Part shown: positions 8,571-26,122 of the stretch, in pieces
How positions within the stretch are numbered: position 1 is the stretch's first letter
Layout: every line of letters begins with the position of its first letter
From: an uncultured Micavibrio sp.
Lineage (GTDB): Bacteria; Patescibacteriota; Minisyncoccia; Moranbacterales; GCA-2747515
Direction: 5' to 3'
Assembly (NCBI GenBank): GCA_964534895.1
Contig: CAZHQB010000002.1
Span: 1-45,946, forward strand
DNA: 45,946 nucleotides
Translations under genes and position numbers: made by a program
The notes under the pieces: generated by a model
The model's database searches: none
What the model saw: only the letters and a program-made list of their open reading frames with translations
What the model was told of the DNA's origin: nothing

Positions 8571-9158
8571 TTAAATTAGTGATTTTATTTTTTCAAAAAT
8601 TTCTTGTTTTGGTTTGTTCCCATCTATTTTATGTAATTTGAAAATTTTGTTGTATTCATTGAATAATTTATTTTTATCTTCTAAATATTGTAATCCTTGT
8701 GAGGGTTTATCATCTCTTTTCATAATTTCTTTTGGTTTAATTGATAGGAAAAATTTATAATTAGGAGAGGTGATGTGCGTGAAAAAAGATGGAATGTATC
8801 GCTTTTTGGATAAGTATGCGATATTTACTATCATATCATAAAAATACCTATCAGTAAGTATGTAATTATACCCATTCCTATCTAATTTTTTGATAAGAGA
8901 TTTGAATCTAAAAATATCAATGAGTAGTGCAACTTTGCGAAGCCAAATTTTGGACCATGATGCTTTTGTCACATCTTTTTGCTTTGTGTAGTGACAGGTT
9001 TGAAACCTGTCACTACGGTTTGAGATATTTGCAACGGAGAACTGGACAGCATGAAAATAGAATACCTTATTTTTGTTATTTTCCAAGTATTCTTGTAATA
9101 ATTGTATTTGAGTTGATTTACCAGAACCATCAAGTCCTGAAATTGAGATTATTTGCAT
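8571..9158 (-). CDS. Thymidylate kinase-like P-loop kinase
   Basis: P-loop GLDGSGKST close to the N-terminus and a DRY motif (LTDRYFYD). ATG at 9158 (MQIISISG) is preferred over the listed TTG at 9167. The CDS contains an in-frame palindromic repeat. Confidence 0.65.
   Translation of the reverse strand: MQIISISGLDGSGKSTQIQLLQEYLENNKNKVFYFHAVQFSVANISNRSDRFQTCHYTKQKDVTKASWSKIWLRKVALLIDIFRFKSLIKKLDRNGYNYILTDRYFYDMIVNIAYLSKKRYIPSFFTHITSPNYKFFLSIKPKEIMKRDDKPSQGLQYLEDKNKLFNEYNKIFKLHKIDGNKPKQEIFEKIKSLI
8970..9016. repeat. REP-like palindrome, family A, copy A1 (inside a CDS)
   Basis: The 29-nt palindrome gtagtgacaggtttgaaacctgtcactac is at 8988-9016. The 5' flank cacatctttttgctttgt is shared with copy A2. 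Confidence 0.85.
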
Positions 9159-9160
9159 GA

Positions 9161-9189
9161 TTGACAATTGTTTGATTATGTGCTAATAT
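9161..9189 (+). promoter_or_regulatory. Sigma70-like promoter
   Basis: TTGACA (9161-9166), 17-nt spacer, TAATAT (9184-9189), upstream of the 9281 gene. Confidence 0.45.
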
Positions 9190-9649: not shown

Positions 9650-10057
9650 ATGAAAATAATAAGTTTAGTTGTCATCGGACTCATCTTGGTGACATTTGCA
9701 GAGAATAGTTTTGCTTCGTCCAAGAAAGTCATGGCTGTCCTTGATAATCTTGCAAAAACAATTGATAAAACAAGGCAACAAAATGCTAATCTTTCATATG
9801 TTAAATTTCAGATGTATGCAAAATTTAACATAACGCAGATTAAGAAAAAATATCAATCTGCATATGGAATCGTTCTCCTTCGTGAGGCCAAAGAAATATG
9901 CCATTGGTCATTAGGGAGAAAAAATGATATCAAATTTATGGATAATTTTGATATGATTCTGCTGGTGGATAAATCGCCAGGTGAACAAGAAAAAATTATT
10001 GAGGACCTGAAAGAAAAGGCAGAATACTGCCATAACAATTTTCAGTCATCAAAATAA
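9650..10057 (+). CDS. Hypothetical secreted protein
   Basis: N-terminal signal-peptide-like segment (MKIISLVVIGLILVTFAENSFA). Starts 9 nt after the upstream stop. Confidence 0.55.
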   Translation: MKIISLVVIGLILVTFAENSFASSKKVMAVLDNLAKTIDKTRQQNANLSYVKFQMYAKFNITQIKKKYQSAYGIVLLREAKEICHWSLGRKNDIKFMDNFDMILLVDKSPGEQEKIIEDLKEKAEYCHNNFQSSK

Positions 10058-10064
10058 ATTTACG

Positions 10065-10096
10065 CCAGTTAGTTTAAGATAAACTAACTGGTTTTT
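10065..10096 (+). terminator. Rho-independent terminator
   Basis: 11-bp stem ccagttagttt/aaactaactgg with loop aagat, followed by TTTTT. Confidence 0.7.
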
Positions 10097-10107
10097 ATTT
10101 TTATTGG

Positions 10108-10152
10108 CACATCTTTGCTTTATGTAGCGACAGGTTTGAAACTTGTCGCTAC
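10108..10152. repeat. REP-like palindrome, family A, copy A2
   Basis: gtagcgacaggtttgaaacttgtcgctac at 10124-10152, with the conserved 5' flank cacatctttgctttat. It ends 3 nt from the rtcB stop codon. Confidence 0.85.
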
Positions 10153-10155
10153 TTT

Positions 10156-11658
10156 TTAATAAACAATAACACTAACAGGTTGCATTTTAGCTACAACTTT
10201 TGCTATTCCATTTGCTTCTACTCCTTCTATTACACGATTTATGTTTTTGTATCTTGCGCTGTCTTGATTTAGTACAATATTTGATTTTGCATTGTATAGA
10301 TGTACTCCTTTTTCTTCCATTTTTGCAAATAATTCATCTTTGTTTTTAATACTTTTTTCATCGCTGTTAATTCCTTTTCCTGTGCCGTGTGGTGCTGAGT
10401 AAAAACTTTCTGCGTTGTCATCTGTGCCTACGCAAATAAAAGCGTCTGTACTCATAGATGATGGGATAAATGCAGGTTCACCTATGTCTTTATATAGAGA
10501 ATGGTGTCCCATACGACTTGGTCCATAAGCTCTGGAAGTATTTGAACGGTGTACCCAGACATCTTTGTTAAAGTGATTTTCTTTTGTTATTGATATGTGG
10601 GGCATATCATATATTAAGTCCATATCAGCATCACGATTTAGGGTTTGTTTAATTGTTTTTGCTATATTGTGTGTAATAGTTGTTCGGTTAGATGTACCAA
10701 AATTGGACGCTGCAGCACGTGCTGTCATATATAATTCTCCATCTGGTCCGTTTGCATCATATTTGAGCAAGGAATCATCACCAGCCATATGTTTTTTGAT
10801 AGCTTCTTGCATTTCATTGTACACATCTTTTTTTCTGGAATTAAAAGTCATTTTTCCCAGTGTAACCATGAGAGATTGTGAAAGATGTTCACGCTTTTTG
10901 GCTGTGTGTGTATACATTGTATATTGTCCCAAGATACCAGAACCAGTATGTATCATGAATAAGTACTGACCTTTTTCGATACCCATTTTTTTTGCTTTTT
11001 CTTCATCCACAATATCAGAGACTTTCATAAGGTCTAAGAAGTGATTTCCGGCAGCACCTAGTATACCAAGTCGATATTTTGCCATGTGTAAATATAATTT
11101 TGGTATTACATCAAAAATATCCTGACGCGACATTTTTTTATCAAAAAAATTTCCTCCATTTTGTGTATTCTCTAACTCATTTTTAGTACGGATACCTAGA
11201 TGTTCAATTATAGCAGATGTTCCTTTGCGACAAATATCAACTACCACATCAAATGGTACATAGGTACCCAAGTATGTTTTTGTGGGTACAGTACTAACGA
11301 GTTGTTTAAAAAGCATTTGAATTTCATCATCATCAATGTTGTTTTCATGCAAGTTGGTTTTTAGAAGCCTCATTCCACAGTTTGGATCTGAGTCATTTAC
11401 TTGGGGTAAAATATATTTATCAGATACAATTGTGGTGCCAGATGCATTTTTGCGTCCTGGTTTTGATGTGATATCGGGTAGTGATGCGGTGTGGCGGAAT
11501 AGCCCTTCATTTGATCCGATGTCTTCCACTTTTGCAAAAGTTTCATCATTTGGAAATAAATCTTTACTCATAAAAAACCGTGAAGGCACAGTCATTTTAT
11601 TAGTTTTGAATTCTGATTGATGTTCGGATATTTTTTTGATATTTTTGATATATTTCAT
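10156..11658 (-). CDS. rtcB: RtcB-family RNA ligase (divergent)
   Basis: RtcB active-site landmarks occur in order: DPNCGM, GNHFLDL, IHTGSG, TITHN, SAPHGTGKG. Confidence 0.75.
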   Translation of the reverse strand: MKYIKNIKKISEHQSEFKTNKMTVPSRFFMSKDLFPNDETFAKVEDIGSNEGLFRHTASLPDITSKPGRKNASGTTIVSDKYILPQVNDSDPNCGMRLLKTNLHENNIDDDEIQMLFKQLVSTVPTKTYLGTYVPFDVVVDICRKGTSAIIEHLGIRTKNELENTQNGGNFFDKKMSRQDIFDVIPKLYLHMAKYRLGILGAAGNHFLDLMKVSDIVDEEKAKKMGIEKGQYLFMIHTGSGILGQYTMYTHTAKKREHLSQSLMVTLGKMTFNSRKKDVYNEMQEAIKKHMAGDDSLLKYDANGPDGELYMTARAAASNFGTSNRTTITHNIAKTIKQTLNRDADMDLIYDMPHISITKENHFNKDVWVHRSNTSRAYGPSRMGHHSLYKDIGEPAFIPSSMSTDAFICVGTDDNAESFYSAPHGTGKGINSDEKSIKNKDELFAKMEEKGVHLYNAKSNIVLNQDSARYKNINRVIEGVEANGIAKVVAKMQPVSVIVY

Positions 11659-11673
11659 AATCTATCTTGATTT

Positions 11674-11702
11674 GTAGTGACAGGTTTTAAGCTTGTCCCT
11701 AC
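11674..11702. repeat. REP-like palindrome, family A, copy A3 (degenerate)
   Basis: gtagtgacaggttttaagcttgtccctac, lying between the RAYT stop and the rtcB start. Confidence 0.75.
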
Positions 11703-11710
11703 TGTTAAAA

Positions 11711-12196
11711 TTAAATGTTATATTTATCTTTGTTCCACTGTCTAGGGTTAATCATAATATATTCTCGGATTTTATTCAATGATTCATCCTTTCTAATTAT
11801 ATGGTCATAAAATGAGCGTTGCCATTGAAATTTGTTTGTTGGGTTAGTATCGTTAATTTTTCTGGATGAAAATGTTTTAAATCCTCGTATTATTTCAGAT
11901 AATCCATGTGTTGTAGGGACAGGTTTCAAACCTGTCCCTACGTTGTCATTTATTTCAATGATAACGTGAACATGGTTTGGCATAATTATGTATTCATCTA
12001 TATTTATATTATTATAGTGATTTGGTAAATTGGTTAAAACATCTTGTGCAATATTGCCATATTCATTTAATATCATCTTTTCATCAATTATTTTTCCGAA
12101 AAAATGTCTTTTATTTTTTGTGCAAATTGTTATGAAATACATGCCGTTTTGTGAATAATCGTAATTTGATAGTCTGGTTTTCTTGCGATGTTTCAT
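11711..12196 (-). CDS. REP-associated tyrosine transposase (RAYT; IS200/IS605-like Y1 HUH family)
   Basis: N-terminus RLSNYDYSQNGMYFITICTKNKRHFFG, HUH motif MPNHVHVII, Tyr motif QRSFYDHIIR. The start is taken at MKHRKK (12196). The listed longer ORF reads through the upstream palindrome. Confidence 0.8.
   Translation of the reverse strand: MKHRKKTRLSNYDYSQNGMYFITICTKNKRHFFGKIIDEKMILNEYGNIAQDVLTNLPNHYNNINIDEYIIMPNHVHVIIEINDNVGTGLKPVPTTHGLSEIIRGFKTFSSRKINDTNPTNKFQWQRSFYDHIIRKDESLNKIREYIMINPRQWNKDKYNI
11913..11941. repeat. REP-like palindrome, family A, copy A4 (inside the RAYT CDS)
   Basis: gtagggacaggtttcaaacctgtccctac, identical 29/29 to A5. It encodes VGTGLKPVPT. Confidence 0.85.
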
Positions 12197-12208
12197 ATAA
12201 ATAATATT

Positions 12209-12237
12209 GTAGGGACAGGTTTCAAACCTGTCCCTAC
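12209..12237. repeat. REP-like palindrome, family A, copy A5
   Basis: gtagggacaggtttcaaacctgtccctac, lying between the GT4 stop (12252) and the RAYT start (12196). Confidence 0.85.
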
Positions 12238-14868: not shown

Positions 14869-14897
14869 GTAGTGATAGGTTTGAAACCTGTCACTAC
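14869..14897. repeat. REP-like palindrome, family A, copy A6
   Basis: gtagtgataggtttgaaacctgtcactac. It ends 3 nt from the stop of the 14901 gene. Confidence 0.85.
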
Positions 14898-14900
14898 ATT

Positions 14901-16889
14901 TTATTTGCGGACAAATACACTTAGTTCATTGTTTTGATATATTCTGTAAAAAATATCATTATTTAGGAATTGTCCAGCGTCTTCTGTTGTGTTTACTATT
15001 ACAGCGTGTACATTTAAGTTTTCAAAGCACTTAGTAGCAAAGTCGCTTTTTGGATTGCTTATCATTTCTCTAGTGCAAGTTTCTTTATCTGGATGAGTTT
15101 CGTACCTTTTGAAATAACTGCGGGAGAGTGGAAAGGAATAATCATAAGCATAAAAAACTTTGAGCCATGTGTCAGATACTATGTAATTGTGGTCTTTTAT
15201 AATCCAAAACTTGTTGGTTAGGATTTGTTTTTTGAATACTTTACTTGTGTAGTCACCTGTGTGAAAAGTCTGAAGTGCTTGATTTGTTTTTGGTTTGTCG
15301 TTCATACTTGTAGCGTTGTCACGTACTCCACTTACAAAGGTAAATGTGATAACTGCAAACAAAAAAGTTGTTATCAAAAACTGGGGAAGTGCTAGTTTTT
15401 TGTTTTTGGAAATTATGTGAATAGTCCAAATAATTGCAAGTCCAGATAAAATTGCTAGGGGGAATGCTGCGTAAGTTGCAATTCTGGTGGAGATGATATT
15501 GACTTTTAAATATTGTGGAACTGTTGACATAAGTAGTATCGCCCAACCCCATCCTAGCAAAAAAGCTGTTGCATAGGTATTGGTAGGTATGTTTTTTTTG
15601 CCAAGATGTGCAAATTTACCAAATCGCTTGAGTAGTGCAAATCCAGATAACATTAACAGTCCAATAACACCAAAAACAAAACGTGCACTTCCGAGCATAT
15701 ACATAAGTTGTTCAAATGGCACACCTGTGCGAGTAGATTTGGATGGCGTTCCGATGGATGAGGTAACTGCATCGCGGTTTAAGTACGAAGGTGGTGCGAT
15801 GAAAAAAAGTAGTCCAATAGACAAAATCAGTAGAGGTATGACATATGGATTTTTAAGTAAAGTAAAAAGTTTTTTGTAGCCATCCCAGCCGTCTTTTTGC
15901 AATACAATAAAACCAAGCAAACTAAATATGAAAGTATAACCAAATATAAGAGTACTAAGATGGTGTGTGTAGGCTAATCCTGTTAGTAGTAAAATTGCAC
16001 CAACTAATAATGTAGATTTTTTTTCTTTGAATGCACGATATACAAAATATATAACAGCAGGAATAAGTAAATTACCTATAACATTTCCAACAACTCCACC
16101 GCTGACAAATTTTGTGCCAGCACCACTGATAGTCCAAAGAGGTCCGATAAAAAGAAGTGTGAGAATTGCTACGTGTGTGCCATAGCGATAGCGTTCAAAT
16201 AACCTGCGTGAAAGTATAAATAACATCAAAACACTAAAGATGTTTATAACAAAAAGTACAAGGGAAGGAAATGTGCTTACCACAGATTGCCCAGTAAAAG
16301 TTTTTACTACTGCAAAAATAATATGTTCACCTTCTATGAAATCTGCGATGTCTTGTGGTTGGCTAAAGGTGGGAGTGTTATCATTTGTTTCCAATTCAAT
16401 TTTTTTGTAATCTGGGAGCTTTTGGTCTGTGGTAATTTTTTGAACCCAAAACATATGATGTCCTAGATCAGTTGCAGTAGGGAAGATTGTATTTATGAGA
16501 AATAGTCCTTTTGCAACAATAGTAAAAATAATTAACAATGCAATTAAGACGGTTTGAATTTTGGAAAAAGTAAAGATTGTCGTAGTGGACGGACATGTCC
16601 GTCCACTACATTTGTGTTTAATAAAAATAGCAAAAACAAAAAATTGCAAAGTTACAACTGATATTGTAATGAGTAAGCTCTGCTGAGTAAGTAAGACGTT
16701 AAATAAGTCTAATAAGATAACGCAAAGAGTGATAATTGCAAAACTTATAGGCACGCTCAAGACAAATCTCTCAAAAGTGCTAAAAAAATCTTTGTGAAAA
16801 ACCGCACGCAAAAAGGCGTATCCTGGTAAAAATAAAAGCGCAAAAGTGACACTCAAGAAAAATAACTGTTGTGATAAAAATTCGTTCAT
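14901..16889 (-). CDS. Large polytopic membrane protein, probable GT-C-type glycosyltransferase (function tentative)
   Basis: 662 aa with more than 12 TM helices and a C-terminal soluble domain. Its context is an envelope glycosylation locus. It contains an in-frame family B palindrome. Confidence 0.55.
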   Translation of the reverse strand: MNEFLSQQLFFLSVTFALLFLPGYAFLRAVFHKDFFSTFERFVLSVPISFAIITLCVILLDLFNVLLTQQSLLITISVVTLQFFVFAIFIKHKCSGRTCPSTTTIFTFSKIQTVLIALLIIFTIVAKGLFLINTIFPTATDLGHHMFWVQKITTDQKLPDYKKIELETNDNTPTFSQPQDIADFIEGEHIIFAVVKTFTGQSVVSTFPSLVLFVINIFSVLMLFILSRRLFERYRYGTHVAILTLLFIGPLWTISGAGTKFVSGGVVGNVIGNLLIPAVIYFVYRAFKEKKSTLLVGAILLLTGLAYTHHLSTLIFGYTFIFSLLGFIVLQKDGWDGYKKLFTLLKNPYVIPLLILSIGLLFFIAPPSYLNRDAVTSSIGTPSKSTRTGVPFEQLMYMLGSARFVFGVIGLLMLSGFALLKRFGKFAHLGKKNIPTNTYATAFLLGWGWAILLMSTVPQYLKVNIISTRIATYAAFPLAILSGLAIIWTIHIISKNKKLALPQFLITTFLFAVITFTFVSGVRDNATSMNDKPKTNQALQTFHTGDYTSKVFKKQILTNKFWIIKDHNYIVSDTWLKVFYAYDYSFPLSRSYFKRYETHPDKETCTREMISNPKSDFATKCFENLNVHAVIVNTTEDAGQFLNNDIFYRIYQNNELSVFVRK
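16582..16609. repeat. REP-like palindrome, family B, copy B1 (inside a CDS)
   Basis: gtagtggacggacatgtccgtccactac, translated as CSGRTCPSTTT. Confidence 0.85.
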
Positions 16890-18215: not shown

Positions 18216-18243
18216 GTAGTGGACGGACATGTCCGTCCACTAC
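18216..18243. repeat. REP-like palindrome, family B, copy B2
   Basis: gtagtggacggacatgtccgtccactac, identical to B1 and lying between convergent genes. Confidence 0.85.
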
Positions 18244-18249
18244 CAATGA

Positions 18250-19404
18250 TCAATGGAATAAAGATTTTAGTGTTTCTAAATAGTGTGCACTTATTTTATC
18301 CCATGTAAAATGTTGCAGTGTATATTCTTTTGCTTTTTTTGTAAATTTATTTTTATCAAAGTTTGTGCTTGTTATTTCTAATATTTTATTTTTCCACATT
18401 AGTTCATTTTCTGGTTCTAATAAGAAGCCGTTTACACCATCTTTGATGGCATCTTTTAATCCTTGCAAATTTGATGAGAGTACTATGCGATCACATACAA
18501 CAGCCTCTAAAGCGTTGAGTCCAAATCCTTCTGCAGAACCCTTTATCTTTATATTTGGCGATATATAGATATCTGCTGTGTTAAATAGGATGTTCATTTC
18601 TTCTTGTTCTATATTTGGAAATAATATTACTCTGTCTTCAAATGAATGTTTTTTGATATATTTTTTGCATAGTGTATAATTTTCACTGTCACCAACTGTG
18701 CGTGGATTGTAGCCACCAGCACCTACAAGTATAAAGTCATTTGGTAGTATTGGCATAACCCTATCAATAAACCAGTGCAATCCCTTGTGAGGAACAAAGC
18801 GACCAACTCTTAAAATTATTTTTTTATTCTTGTAATAGTCAATATCTTTTTTAGTGGTATTGGAAAGTAATTTTTCTAATTCTTCTCTTGTGTGTTTTTC
18901 ATATACTTTTTTTATATTAACTCCATTTGGTATAAATGTACATTTATTCTTATCAATTCCGAGTCTAATTGCTTCTTCTATTGCATAATTACCAACCATG
19001 ATTAGTTTATCAAAATTTTTGAGGGCTGGGATATTGAGAAATTTATATATTTTGCCCATCGGAGAATTTTTGTATGCAAAAGTTAAATCAAGCGCATGTA
19101 TGACACTGACAAATTTTTGTTTGTGATAAAATAATTTGAAAAATTCTCCAATAGGCGCAAGTGTGCCGTCCCCAAAAAGCACAACTTTGTATTTGTGTAA
19201 GATAAAAGGGAGTTTTATAAATAAGTAGAATACAAAAGGTAAAAAGTTTCTTTTGCCTTTTGTGTTTGCAATTAGTTTGATTGAGGTTATTTTTGATAAA
19301 TATTGGTATAAATTATAATTTTGGTCTTCTATGCCACCTTGTGTTGGTGGGTATGATTTTGAAATAAAAAGTATTTTTAAATCAGACTTATTTTGTTTTG
19401 TCAT
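18250..19404 (-). CDS. Glycosyltransferase family 4
   Basis: 384 aa. N-terminus KILFISKSYPPTQGGIE and a C-terminal EGFGLNALEA motif (E-x7-E type). Confidence 0.8.
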   Translation of the reverse strand: MTKQNKSDLKILFISKSYPPTQGGIEDQNYNLYQYLSKITSIKLIANTKGKRNFLPFVFYLFIKLPFILHKYKVVLFGDGTLAPIGEFFKLFYHKQKFVSVIHALDLTFAYKNSPMGKIYKFLNIPALKNFDKLIMVGNYAIEEAIRLGIDKNKCTFIPNGVNIKKVYEKHTREELEKLLSNTTKKDIDYYKNKKIILRVGRFVPHKGLHWFIDRVMPILPNDFILVGAGGYNPRTVGDSENYTLCKKYIKKHSFEDRVILFPNIEQEEMNILFNTADIYISPNIKIKGSAEGFGLNALEAVVCDRIVLSSNLQGLKDAIKDGVNGFLLEPENELMWKNKILEITSTNFDKNKFTKKAKEYTLQHFTWDKISAHYLETLKSLFH

Positions 19405-21652: not shown

Positions 21653-21802
21653 AATATTTAGTATATTAGTTATTAGTTAGTAGTGTACAAACATTTTAGG
21701 ATTTTTGCAATACAAAATTGATTTGGGTGCTTGCATTAATTATTGTATAATGATAACATCATACAGTTTTGAATAATGTTAATTATTTTAGAGGGAAAAC
21801 TT

Positions 21803-22957
21803 ATGCATATAGGAATAAACGTATCATTTTTAAGAAAGCCTTATACAGGTATAGGACAGGTTACATTACATTTACTCAACGAATTAATAAAACAAGCACA
21901 AAATAATAAATCGATGAAAAATTATAAATTTTTTCTTTATTTTGAGGAGGAGTGTGATATTGATGTGCCAAAGAATTTTCATAAACGAAAGTTTCTTCCA
22001 GGATTTTATAGAAGAGATGATTTGTTTCGCAAATTGCTTTGGGAAAAGTTTTATTTACCCAAAAGGGCCAGGCAAGATAAATGTGATGTATTGTTGAGTC
22101 TGTATCAGTCGGCAACTGTTATAAAATATACTGATATGAAACATATTATGTTGGTGCATGATGTCATACCACATATTTTGGTAGAGTATTTGGATAATTT
22201 TCGTAAAAAAATATATTGGGAGATGGTAGAGAAGGGGATATATAGTTCAAACAAAATTATAACTGTTTCAGAACATACAAAAATTGATTTGGAAAAAAGA
22301 TTAAATATCAAACCAGCAAAAATTATAGTAGACAAAATTGCAGTTGATCCTATTTTTAATCAAGATTTGTCTGATAAAGATATTGATAAAGTACTACAAA
22401 AATATAAATTGGATAGGGGATATATTTACAGTGGTGGAGGTTTAGAATTACGCAAAAATGTAGAAGGGACACTTGGAGCGTATAGATTACTTTTGGATAA
22501 GTGGAGTGACGCTCCTGATTTGGTGATTTCTGGAAAACTAATGCCAGAATTATCTCCTATGATTACAGATGTGGAGAAAATAGTAAAAGAATTAAATATA
22601 AAAGACAGGGTGCATATTTTGGGTTTCGTAGAACAACAGGATTTGCCTGCACTCTACAGAGGCGCAAAGTTGTTTGTATTCCCATCTAATTATGAGGGAT
22701 TTGGTATGCCAGTACTTGAAGCAATGAGTGTGGGAACACCAGTACTTACAGCTCGTAATTCTTCACTTGAAGAAGTGGGCGGTGAAGTGGTGGCTTATGT
22801 AGAGACTGGCGAAAAACAAGAAATTTTTGAAAAAATGTTTGAATTATTAAAAGATGAAAAACAATTACAAAAGATGAGTACTGAGGGCAAAGAGCGAGCT
22901 AAGCACTTTTCATGGGACAAATTTACAACAAATCTTTGTAAAATAATTTGCAAATAA
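21803..22957 (+). CDS. Glycosyltransferase family 4
   Basis: ATG at 21803 is preceded by agaggga. C-terminal motif EGFGMPVLEAMSVGTPV. Confidence 0.85.
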   Translation: MHIGINVSFLRKPYTGIGQVTLHLLNELIKQAQNNKSMKNYKFFLYFEEECDIDVPKNFHKRKFLPGFYRRDDLFRKLLWEKFYLPKRARQDKCDVLLSLYQSATVIKYTDMKHIMLVHDVIPHILVEYLDNFRKKIYWEMVEKGIYSSNKIITVSEHTKIDLEKRLNIKPAKIIVDKIAVDPIFNQDLSDKDIDKVLQKYKLDRGYIYSGGGLELRKNVEGTLGAYRLLLDKWSDAPDLVISGKLMPELSPMITDVEKIVKELNIKDRVHILGFVEQQDLPALYRGAKLFVFPSNYEGFGMPVLEAMSVGTPVLTARNSSLEEVGGEVVAYVETGEKQEIFEKMFELLKDEKQLQKMSTEGKERAKHFSWDKFTTNLCKIICK

Positions 22958-23046
22958 GATGCTATAGCAAAAAGCAGTCCAACCTTCGGATGCTTGAATG
23001 TTTGACTTTTGGGATGTAGAGATTATTTTGTGTATCGAATATTATA

Positions 23047-23080
23047 GCAACCAGGTCGCTAAGTCTAGCGACCTGGTTGC
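23047..23080. repeat. Palindromic repeat, family C, copy C3 (perfect)
   Basis: gcaaccaggtcgctaagtctagcgacctggttgc: a 15-bp stem with a 4-nt loop, followed by tgtttt. Confidence 0.8.
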
Positions 23081-23094
23081 TGTTTTAAGATAAA

Positions 23095-24483: not shown

Positions 24484-24580
24484 CTTTTCCTCCTATATTA
24501 ATTGTTTTTGTGATATACTAATGTTAAAGAGCCGTTAAATAACTGATAGTTAAATATAGGATAATTTTATATTTTTGTCA

Positions 24581-26122
24581 ATGAATGAGTTAACAAAACA
24601 CAAAAGAATATTGACGGTTTTGAATGTGGTTGTGGTTACGGGTTTAATTGTTTTGCAACACATTGGTTTTTTTGATAGTGGTGAGTGGTTTGGGTTTGTG
24701 CTTTTTTGTGCAGGGCTTTTTGTTTTGGCACTGTACCGGCCTTGGGTTGTATTTGTTTTACTTGTGGGAGTTGTTCCTATTGAGATTATAAATATAGCTC
24801 CTGATATACTGCCTATAGATCTGCGGCCATATCAATTACTTACTACACTTTTGGTCTTGGCTGTTATTGTTCGTAGGATTTTTGGTGGTGAAAAATTTAT
24901 TTTTAAAGCAGGTATATTTGATATTTTGGTTAGTGTTTTGATAGTTTTGGGATTTGTTAGTGCTTTTTTGTCTCCTTTTGACAATAGTGCTATCAAACAA
25001 GCGTTAGTAGTTTTTTCTTTTGGGCTTTTGTATTTTGTAGTGCGGTTTTTTGTACGCAAAAAAGATGATGTTTTGGCATTGTTTCCAATTATGGTGTCCA
25101 GTGGCGTGGTGATAGGAATTTATGCGATTGTGCAAAATATTTTATTTACTAGTGGTGGAGTACATGCAGAAGTGATGCCGGGACGGCCAAATGCTACTTT
25201 TGCTGAACCTGATTGGCTGGGGATATATTTAGTGTTTGTTTGTGCTGTGATTTTGGCGTATTTGTATTATAGTGTACGACACAAACATTTATGGAAATTT
25301 TTTGATATTGCTCTTTTTGGTTCGGCCACTGTAGTGGTGACAGCACTTATTATTACAGTTGCTCGCAGTGCTTGGGTTGGATTTGTGGCTGTGGCTTTTG
25401 CTTATCTTTTGAGTGTGTTTTTGCAAAAGAAATATAAATTGTTTGGAATGCATAGTTTTTGGATTGTTAGTGTGGGAGTGTTTAGTTTGATTATTGTGAG
25501 TGTGTTTAGTTTGACTAATTTTGAATTATTACATAGAGCTAGTAGCACTAGTTCAGGTTTGCAAGAAATTACAATCGCCTGTGATTGTAGTGGACAGACA
25601 TGTCTGTCCACTACAACTGTGATTGAAAATGTAGAAGAGTTAACTCAATATAATTGCAAACACATAAATTTAGAAGATGTAGAAAGTGAAAAAACAAAAG
25701 GCTTAAGCGTGCTAAAAATTTATCGCAAAGATCCAAATGTAGTAGTGCGTACAGATGTGTACAACAAGACAATTACACTCATAAAACAAAGTCCAGTTTT
25801 GGGGTATGGTTGGGGCAGTAGTGGACAGATGTTAGGCAATGATGAAAACGGCACACCTCTCAATGCAAGTAATATATTTTTGGAGACTGCACTTTCAGTT
25901 GGGTTGCTTGGAGTAGGTGTTTTGATTGCAATTTTTATACTTGGTGGCTTTTATGCTGTCAGAAGTATCCAAAAACTAAAAAACACAAAACAAAAAAGCG
26001 TAGCAATCTTTGTGCTTGTGGGACTGGTAGCAATAATTGTACCAAATCTATTTAATGCAGGATTGTTCTTGGGATTGGTATGGTTGTTTATGGGAATGCT
26101 TGACGGTTTGCGTAAAGTGTGA
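24581..26122 (+). CDS. O-antigen ligase/polymerase family membrane protein (Wzy_C-like)
   Basis: Polytopic protein. The motif TVARSAWVGFVAVAF is typical of the O-antigen ligase domain. A large loop contains a family B palindrome. ATG at 24581 is preferred over the TTG at 24575. Confidence 0.7.
   Translation: MNELTKHKRILTVLNVVVVTGLIVLQHIGFFDSGEWFGFVLFCAGLFVLALYRPWVVFVLLVGVVPIEIINIAPDILPIDLRPYQLLTTLLVLAVIVRRIFGGEKFIFKAGIFDILVSVLIVLGFVSAFLSPFDNSAIKQALVVFSFGLLYFVVRFFVRKKDDVLALFPIMVSSGVVIGIYAIVQNILFTSGGVHAEVMPGRPNATFAEPDWLGIYLVFVCAVILAYLYYSVRHKHLWKFFDIALFGSATVVVTALIITVARSAWVGFVAVAFAYLLSVFLQKKYKLFGMHSFWIVSVGVFSLIIVSVFSLTNFELLHRASSTSSGLQEITIACDCSGQTCLSTTTVIENVEELTQYNCKHINLEDVESEKTKGLSVLKIYRKDPNVVVRTDVYNKTITLIKQSPVLGYGWGSSGQMLGNDENGTPLNASNIFLETALSVGLLGVGVLIAIFILGGFYAVRSIQKLKNTKQKSVAIFVLVGLVAIIVPNLFNAGLFLGLVWLFMGMLDGLRKV
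25587..25614. repeat. REP-like palindrome, family B, copy B3 (inside a CDS)
   Basis: gtagtggacagacatgtctgtccactac, translated as CSGQTCLSTTT. It shows a compensatory G-C to A-T change relative to B1 and B2. Confidence 0.85.

Follow-up and report, generated by a model that had tools for sequence, protein, structure and literature searches.

We analyzed a stretch of 45,946 nucleotides (the window) from an uncultured member of Candidatus Moraniibacteriota (assembly GCA_964534895.1, contig CAZHQB010000002.1) and found that it carries an intact gene for a Y1/HUH transposase of the type associated with repetitive extragenic palindromes (REPs), together with a 29-nt palindrome that occurs upstream of the gene, downstream of the gene, and in frame within it. 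Such a transposase is termed a REP-associated tyrosine transposase (RAYT) or TnpA_REP. We consider it likely, with a probability of about 0.8, that this region represents a "REPtron" belonging to TnpA_REP subclass 2.4, in which the intact gene is accompanied by its cognate REP at all three sites. The initial annotation of this DNA had described the presence of the palindrome inside the gene as unusual, which overstates the case: an in-frame REP that separates the HuH motif from the Tyr motif has been published as a hallmark of subclass 2.4 and predominates in it (Quentin, Siguier, Chandler and Fichant, 2018; BMC Genomics 19:475; PMC6006769). A RAYT with its own in-frame REP was therefore already described in 2018, and the window provides a clean, ordinary example.

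The open reading frame (ORF) and every palindrome coordinate given in the initial annotation proved to be correct (Table 1), and its assignment of the protein to the IS200-like RAYTs was borne out by both sequence and fold. In a hidden Markov model search, the protein matched Pfam Y1_Tnp (PF01797) over profile positions 4–119 of 121 (E = 4.9e-12, 46.5 bits against a cut-off of 23). A phmmer search of PDB sequences gave no match, and the structures of 4ER8, IS608, and ISDra2 were reached by fold search alone. The AlphaFold2 model, for which 37 homologues served as input, has a mean predicted local distance difference test score (pLDDT) of 86.7, and when it was compared with the PDB by Foldseek, the top 30 matches were all IS200, IS608, or ISDra2 TnpA proteins, or 4ER8 (E values of 3e-7 to 3e-5). 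The match to 4ER8, which is the E. coli REP-associated tyrosine transposase with a bound REP hairpin, had a TMq of 0.61 and a root-mean-square deviation of 3.9 Å. Residues H75, H77, Y146, and N150 are invariant in two alignments of homologues (A1 and A3), and Y146 is placed within helix 137–158 of the model. The HUH motif had been correctly recognized in the initial annotation, and the Tyr motif had not: the segment that was named, QRSFYDHIIR, forms the WQ strand, some homologues (L031 and L039) have His in place of its Tyr, and the true catalytic Tyr is Y146. The gene thus encodes a RAYT/TnpA_REP-type Y1 HUH transposase.

Two other interpretations of the gene itself were rejected. A 204-aa version, starting from an ATG farther upstream, runs into the gene before it, and homologues begin at the same MxxRK as the 161-aa ORF. 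A disrupted pseudogene is ruled out by the intact ORF, the full set of catalytic residues, and the conserved arrangement. As there is one RAYT copy within the 46-kb window (its neighbors are a glycosyltransferase gene and RtcB), no tnpB partner, and the same glycosyltransferase–RAYT–RtcB locus in four related genomes, we conclude that the gene is probably a vertically inherited, host-resident RAYT rather than an insertion sequence.

The palindrome associated with the gene, GTAGGGACAGGTTTCAAACCTGTCCCTAC, is a perfect 29-nt palindrome of the form GTAG-N21-CTAC, with a 14+1+14 "double foot" organization and a 14-bp stem; we refer to it as family A. The perfect upstream copy, the identical internal copy, and the degenerate downstream copy that had been reported are all present. 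The coding-strand sequence of the internal copy is GTA GGG ACA GGT TTG AAA CCT GTC CCT AC and is translated as VGTGLKPVPT, and the number of matches expected by chance for its identity with the upstream copy was zero (100 shuffles). The downstream copy contains 3 stem mismatches and differs from the perfect copy at 4 positions; when folded as single-stranded DNA, its predicted energy is −3.8 kcal/mol, versus −13.2 kcal/mol (z = −7.7) for the perfect copy. In the AlphaFold2 model, the residues encoded by the internal REP lie in a loop of low pLDDT (residues 83–98) between the HUH strand (75–82) and helix 99–117. The proposal that the GTAG-headed palindrome is the REP of this RAYT is supported, and on sequence grounds we regard it as the cognate REP.

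The palindrome within the gene could in principle be a by-product of a peptide, VGxGLKPxPT, that the protein needs, in which case its likeness to a REP would be coincidental. The peptide is indeed nearly invariant in the 36 closest homologues, which come from Moranbacteria, Omnitrophota, Thermodesulfobacteriota, Parcubacteria, and Desantisbacteria and keep V-G-x-G-[LF]-K-P-x-P-T (V86, G89, K91, P92, and T95 being nearly invariant), but in the same 36 proteins the variable residues change in pairs (T..V, N..F, E..S, V..T, and G..P to E..S), and L and F alternate. Such covariation is what a DNA palindrome GTAGGGNNNGGTTT[G/C]AAACCNNNCCCTAC predicts when it is read in this frame, and the DNA of the segment was palindromic in every covarying case that we checked. 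The alignment of homologues that the initial annotation had suggested thus revealed a segment that is conserved as protein and palindromic as DNA, and more distant homologues were found to carry other, unrelated palindromes at the same site, in other frames. The same 29-mer is also found outside genes, and its residues in the RAYT fall in a disordered loop. Residue-pair covariation, variation of the frame, and the match of internal palindromes to their own flanking REPs (see below) refute a coincidence of coding, and we assign this explanation a practically negligible probability.

We extended the comparison to the DNA of 80 loci from more than 15 phyla, chosen among at least 585 genome matches to the RAYT; 76 of these loci had recognizable motifs. 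A strong palindrome (score of at least 11 between the HUH and WQ motifs) followed the HUH strand at 41 of the 76 loci, versus 13 of 1520 control segments of the same length (0.9%). These palindromes nearly always have GTAG...CTAC feet and are otherwise highly dissimilar (examples are GTAGGGGCGGGTTTGAAACCCGCCCCTAC, GTAGGGGCACGGCATGCCGTGCCCCTAC, GTAGGGGCGAAAAATTTTTCGCCCCTAC, and GTAGAGACGTTGCATGCAACGTCTCTAC), and they are translated in at least two frames, so that the same DNA yields VGARHAVPL in one case and CRGTACRAP in another. Among 19 distinct 29-mers, compensated changes occur at stem positions 5, 7, 8, and 9, and the GTAG/CTAC feet are conserved. Four members of the family (L021, L022, L028, and L040) have a short loop without a palindrome, and in the alignment L021 and L022 show a gap where the internal REP sits, which identifies the segment as an insertion. 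At six loci (L003, L012, L015, L032, L050, and L059), tandem REP-derived repeats occupy the same loop, for example two copies of VGEGLKPSPT in L012 and four of GPCAVPK in L032, and the length of the protein varies. These sequence comparisons show that the internal copy is an insertion at the DNA level and does not arise from the coding sequence by chance.

We next examined the 41 loci whose internal palindrome is of the GTAG..CTAC type and asked how often a similar palindrome (5 or fewer differences, within 700 nt) flanks the gene. The internal palindrome matched its own flank at 18 of the 41 loci, versus 57 of 1640 cross-locus pairs (3.5%), and, measured from the internal copy, the flanking copies were located at −285 to −394 and +239 to +344, that is, just beyond the start and stop codons. 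The local REP was confined to the internal position at L003, L025, L026, L033, L035, L039, L041, L043, and others. The 29-nt REP GTAGNGACAGGTTTNAAACCTGTCNCTAC was also found (loci L084–L163) in Omnitrophota, in Kuenenia and other Planctomycetota, in Patescibacteria, in Thermodesulfobacteriota, and elsewhere, often with many copies per assembly, and it is present on many contigs of one Omnitrophota metagenome-assembled genome (MAG) and of several Kuenenia assemblies. Its occurrence in very distant phyla implies horizontal spread of this RAYT/REP type.

Orthologous loci in Candidatus Moraniibacteriota allowed the three copies to be followed in closely related genomes. RtcB (10156–11658), which adjoins the RAYT gene, is 93% and 92% identical to its counterparts in Candidatus Moraniibacteriota MAGs, which assigns the window to this group, and the order glycosyltransferase–RAYT–RtcB is syntenic in L081/L204, L083, L203, and L205. 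In the window and in L081, the upstream, internal, and downstream sites are occupied by family A; in L083 and L203, all three sites are occupied by a palindrome of the type of family B, a second family that is described below; and in L205, a third variant is present at the upstream and internal sites. Each of the Moraniibacteriota orthologues examined has an internal copy with no more than one stem mismatch. To judge from these loci, the sister genomes have exchanged all three copies jointly for another REP type. The RAYT is 61–78% identical between genomes whose RtcB proteins are 92–93% identical (L203 and L204), which suggests replacement of a module made up of the gene and its REPs, or fast coevolution of the two. 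In more distant Moraniibacteriota (RtcB 73–86% identical), including the complete genome CP175956.1, the RAYT is absent from this locus. The relatives that lack the RAYT and the divergence of the RAYT itself indicate that the module was gained, lost, or replaced by another allele.

In the initial annotation, the arrangement was taken to imply that the gene targets itself, is regulated, or loses its 5′ half by excision. The evidence requires none of these, as a tolerated insertion is sufficient to account for it. According to the excision proposal, the upstream and internal copies would be the ends for RAYT-mediated or recombinational removal of the 296-bp 5′ half, which would constitute a self-inactivating switch. 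The two copies are identical at 29/29 positions and lie 296 bp apart, a spacing of approximately 300 nt recurs in 17 loci, and IS200/IS605 enzymes excise single-stranded DNA between two hairpin ends, as established for IS608 and ISDra2. However, the gene is full length in all of the assembled relatives (P0001 at 99% identity, L081, L083, L203, and L205), among which no truncated or deleted RAYT allele was seen, and in many loci the upstream copy is absent or unlike the internal one. We therefore regard excision as improbable.

Further copies of the palindrome occur in many genomes and elsewhere in the window, where all copies outside the RAYT locus are additional to those in the initial annotation (Table 1). 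Positions 5/25 of family A are G-C, T-A, or C-G, so that copies vary by compensated pairs. The second GTAG-footed palindrome family, family B, is 28 nt long (GTAGTGGACGGACATGTCCGTCCACTAC) and has 3 copies in the window. The REPs within the genes for thymidylate kinase (tmk), the DUF6541 membrane protein, and the Wzy_C protein add approximately 10 residues each, and these proteins have full-length Pfam matches (Thymidylate_kin spans the entire tmk ORF). The DUF6541 insert is kept, yet decayed, in the L083 orthologue. In the tmk gene of L081, an orthologue with 66% identity, a family B-like palindrome (GTACGGGACGGACATGTCCGTCCCCCAC, L081:4241-4268) starts at the very nucleotide where the window has family A, a difference that reflects either replacement in situ or a very specific insertion hot spot. 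We looked for a second RAYT that would serve family B and found none in the 46-kb window; the family B copies may have been left behind by an earlier allele, or a RAYT located elsewhere in the genome may serve them.

Table 1. The RAYT gene, its functional residues, and the REP copies of the window
Feature	Position	Strand	Remarks
RAYT (TnpA_REP) gene, intact	11711..12196	−	161 aa, starts MKHRKK
HUH motif, H75-V-H77	11966-11974		
WQ motif			W125-Q126
Catalytic Tyr, Y146	11759-11761		in REYIMINP
N150	11747-11749		at Y+4
Upstream REP, family A, perfect	12209..12237		12 nt before RAYT ATG; 14 nt past stop of upstream glycosyltransferase gene
Internal REP, family A	11913..11941		in frame, V86-T95; 29/29 identical to upstream copy
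Downstream REP, family A, decayed	11674..11702		8 nt past RAYT stop; 15 nt before RtcB start
REP, family A	10124..10152		3 nt past RtcB stop; compensated C-G pair at positions 5/25
REP, family A	8988..9016		in frame in thymidylate kinase (tmk) gene 8571-9167(−); read ..RSDRFQTCHY..
REP, family A	14869..14897		3 nt past stop of DUF6541 membrane-protein gene
REP, family B (GTAGTGGACGGACATGTCCGTCCACTAC)	16582..16609		in frame in DUF6541 gene 14901-16889(−); read CSGRTCPSTT
REP, family B	18216..18243		intergenic, 6 nt past stop of glycosyltransferase gene 18250-19404(−)
REP, family B variant, compensated pair GGACAGACA/TGTCTGTCC	25587..25614		in frame in Wzy_C O-antigen-ligase-like gene 24575-26122(+); read CSGQTCLSTT

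The positions of these copies also bear on whether the hairpins are ordinary terminators or mRNA-stabilizing stem-loops that have nothing to do with the transposase. Six of the nine copies (4 of them intergenic) were called terminator-like, with T-rich sequence after them, five copies lie 3–8 nt past stop codons, and side effects of this kind are known for REPs (Di Nocera et al., 2013). Four copies, however, are in frame within ORFs, the sequence of the palindrome co-varies with the adjacent RAYT across genomes, and the conserved GTAG/CTAC feet are not needed for termination. That the hairpins are unrelated to the transposase is, in our estimation, highly improbable.

Several additional features of the window were noted. 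The family A copies in tmk and after RtcB share an extra tail of approximately 10 nt, AYAAAGCAAA, which follows CTAC on the − strand (8978–8987 and 10114–10123), and at some sites the mobilized unit may extend beyond the 29-nt palindrome. Irregular spacing and the presence of copies within genes ruled out a CRISPR-like or tandem array, and an Rfam scan of the window returned no match. Two hairpins that are followed by T runs (23046–23081 and 10064–10092) are terminator-like in the ordinary way, bear no sequence relationship to the REP families, and follow ORFs 21776–22957(+) and 9650–10057(+), respectively. The first of these was considered as a REP and rejected, as it resembles an ordinary terminator instead.

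Our placement of the RAYT in subclass 2.4 rests on a comparison with published features. The subclass is characterized by the motifs NH[IFV]H, WQ, and YIxNNP, a variable β3:αC insertion, and a REP in tnpAREP (Table 1 of Quentin et al., 2018); its REPs are long and have a "double foot" (GT[AG]G ... C[TC]AC), and it corresponds to RAYT group 4 of Bertels, Gallie and Rainey (2017) (Quentin et al., 2018; PMC6006769). The window protein likewise has NHVH and WQ, its Tyr motif follows YIxNNP in part (Y..NP), and it lacks a C-terminal tail domain (in the model, the protein ends 3 residues beyond its last helix, 137–158 of 161). Its β3-αC insertion consists of in-frame REP sequence and is variable among homologues, and its REP is a long double foot. 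It differs from the subclass in length, as it has 161 aa and the median of subclass 2.4 is 194 aa. With regard to host, subclass 2.4 is found in abundance among Cyanobacteria and Bacteroidetes and scattered elsewhere (Quentin et al., 2018), whereas the window comes from Patescibacteria (Moraniibacteriota).

Comparison with E. coli TnpA_REP (RAYT group 2, subclass 2.2; 4ER8) gave a similar mixture of likeness and difference. Both proteins have the Y1 HUH fold, both are associated with a GTAG-footed hairpin, and both are encoded by a single host gene flanked by REPs. The sequence identity of the two proteins is 18%, however, and whereas the E. coli repeats (REP/BIME) show bulges in their stems and carry one foot, the window REP has a double foot. 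The E. coli gene has no internal REP, and the window protein lacks a C-terminal extension found in the E. coli enzyme.

Several observations weigh against the interpretation of the region as a subclass 2.4 REPtron. The Tyr motif of the window protein, YIMINP, departs from the consensus YIxNNP in having Ile for Asn at Y+3, with Y, I, N at Y+4, and P kept. The best NCBIfam family, REP_Tyr_transpos (NF047646), was matched with 72.5 bits, which does not reach the equivalog cut-off of 80. Approximately half of the loci have a strong internal palindrome but no similar copy within 700 nt. Internal copies had 0 stem mismatches in 32 of 42 cases, a count that is biased by ascertainment; because the selection of loci demanded a good internal palindrome, we did not use the relative perfection of internal and flanking copies as evidence. 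The high share of perfect internal palindromes and the existence of internal-only loci are nevertheless two features that a view of the internal copy as a "neutral passenger" does not by itself explain. Finally, to our knowledge no subclass 2.4 enzyme has demonstrated biochemical activity, and for this reason we infer the cleavage chemistry from homology.

With these reservations, we favor the REPtron interpretation and, by analogy with E. coli TnpA_REP, IS608, and ISDra2, propose the following mechanism. On single-stranded DNA, the enzyme would bind the REP hairpin in its folded form and read its GTAG foot, and it would then cut and rejoin the DNA through Y146, with H75, H77, and N150 holding Mg2+. 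By the same analogy, this activity would spread or maintain REPs, which in a compact genome would insert into very short intergenic spacers and permissive protein loops, including that of the RAYT itself. The simplest reading of the internal copy would be a tolerated in-frame insertion into a permissive loop, and the location of the segment in a low-confidence surface loop, together with the short-loop homologues that lack it, makes such an insertion sufficient. Turnover or gene conversion may then keep the internal copy similar to the flanking copies.

A different view of the internal REP is that it is a selected cis element, either a hairpin in single-stranded DNA or mRNA through which the RAYT senses itself or limits its own expression, or a built-in "seed" copy. 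The internal REP occupies one fixed site in most members of a family that spans more than 15 phyla, and its palindromy is kept by compensatory changes despite coding constraints. In Moraniibacteriota, the near-perfect internal copies differ from the decayed REP of the DUF6541 orthologue; many loci have an internal copy only; and the same 29-nt REP is found with related RAYTs in distant phyla. On the other hand, the short-loop, palindrome-free members indicate that the copy is dispensable for the protein, the frame, length, and copy number vary at the site as repeated insertion would produce, unrelated genes in this genome also carry in-frame REPs, and the count of perfect palindromes is biased by the choice of loci. 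On balance, we consider selection for a cis function possible but rather unlikely. We are similarly hesitant about the broader proposition that the internal REP is kept as a component of the system, where it would serve as a master or seed copy or as a self-sensing hairpin and would be exchanged together with its flanking counterparts when the REP type switches.

In-frame palindromes are known from other genomes. Intragenic GTAG REPs that are in frame in host genes and translated as short peptide inserts were described by Di Nocera et al. (2013), and palindromic elements inserted in frame in protein genes of Rickettsia were reported by Ogata et al. (2000), as cited in Di Nocera et al. (2013). 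The inserts in tmk, DUF6541, Wzy_C, and the RAYT of the window resemble these elements; those reports, however, concern host genes, whereas in the window the transposase gene carries an insert too. Syntenic RAYT genes of related strains flanked by different REP classes have been described as "orthogroups" (Nunvar et al., 2013; BMC Genomics 14:385). The switch of REP type in Moraniibacteriota is unlike that in the orthogroups in that it includes the copy within the coding sequence, and the site in the host gene tmk also differs (family A versus B-like). REPs inside RAYT genes are not mentioned in Nunvar 2010, Bertels 2017, Di Nocera 2013, or Corneloup 2021; a full-text literature search for them returned Quentin 2018 alone, and we found no later paper on the function of the internal copy.

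These results extend the documented host range of RAYTs with an internal REP to the small, compact genomes of Candidatus Moraniibacteriota, in which the same REPs are also found in frame in housekeeping and envelope genes. They raise the question of why subclass 2.4 so consistently keeps its substrate hairpin in its own gene. If the internal REP is kept as such a component of the system, then enzyme and substrate would stay genetically linked, and a single ORF could found a new REP population after horizontal transfer. With a single locus at which A-type, B-type, and empty alleles occur naturally, Moraniibacteriota offer a convenient system in which to address this question.

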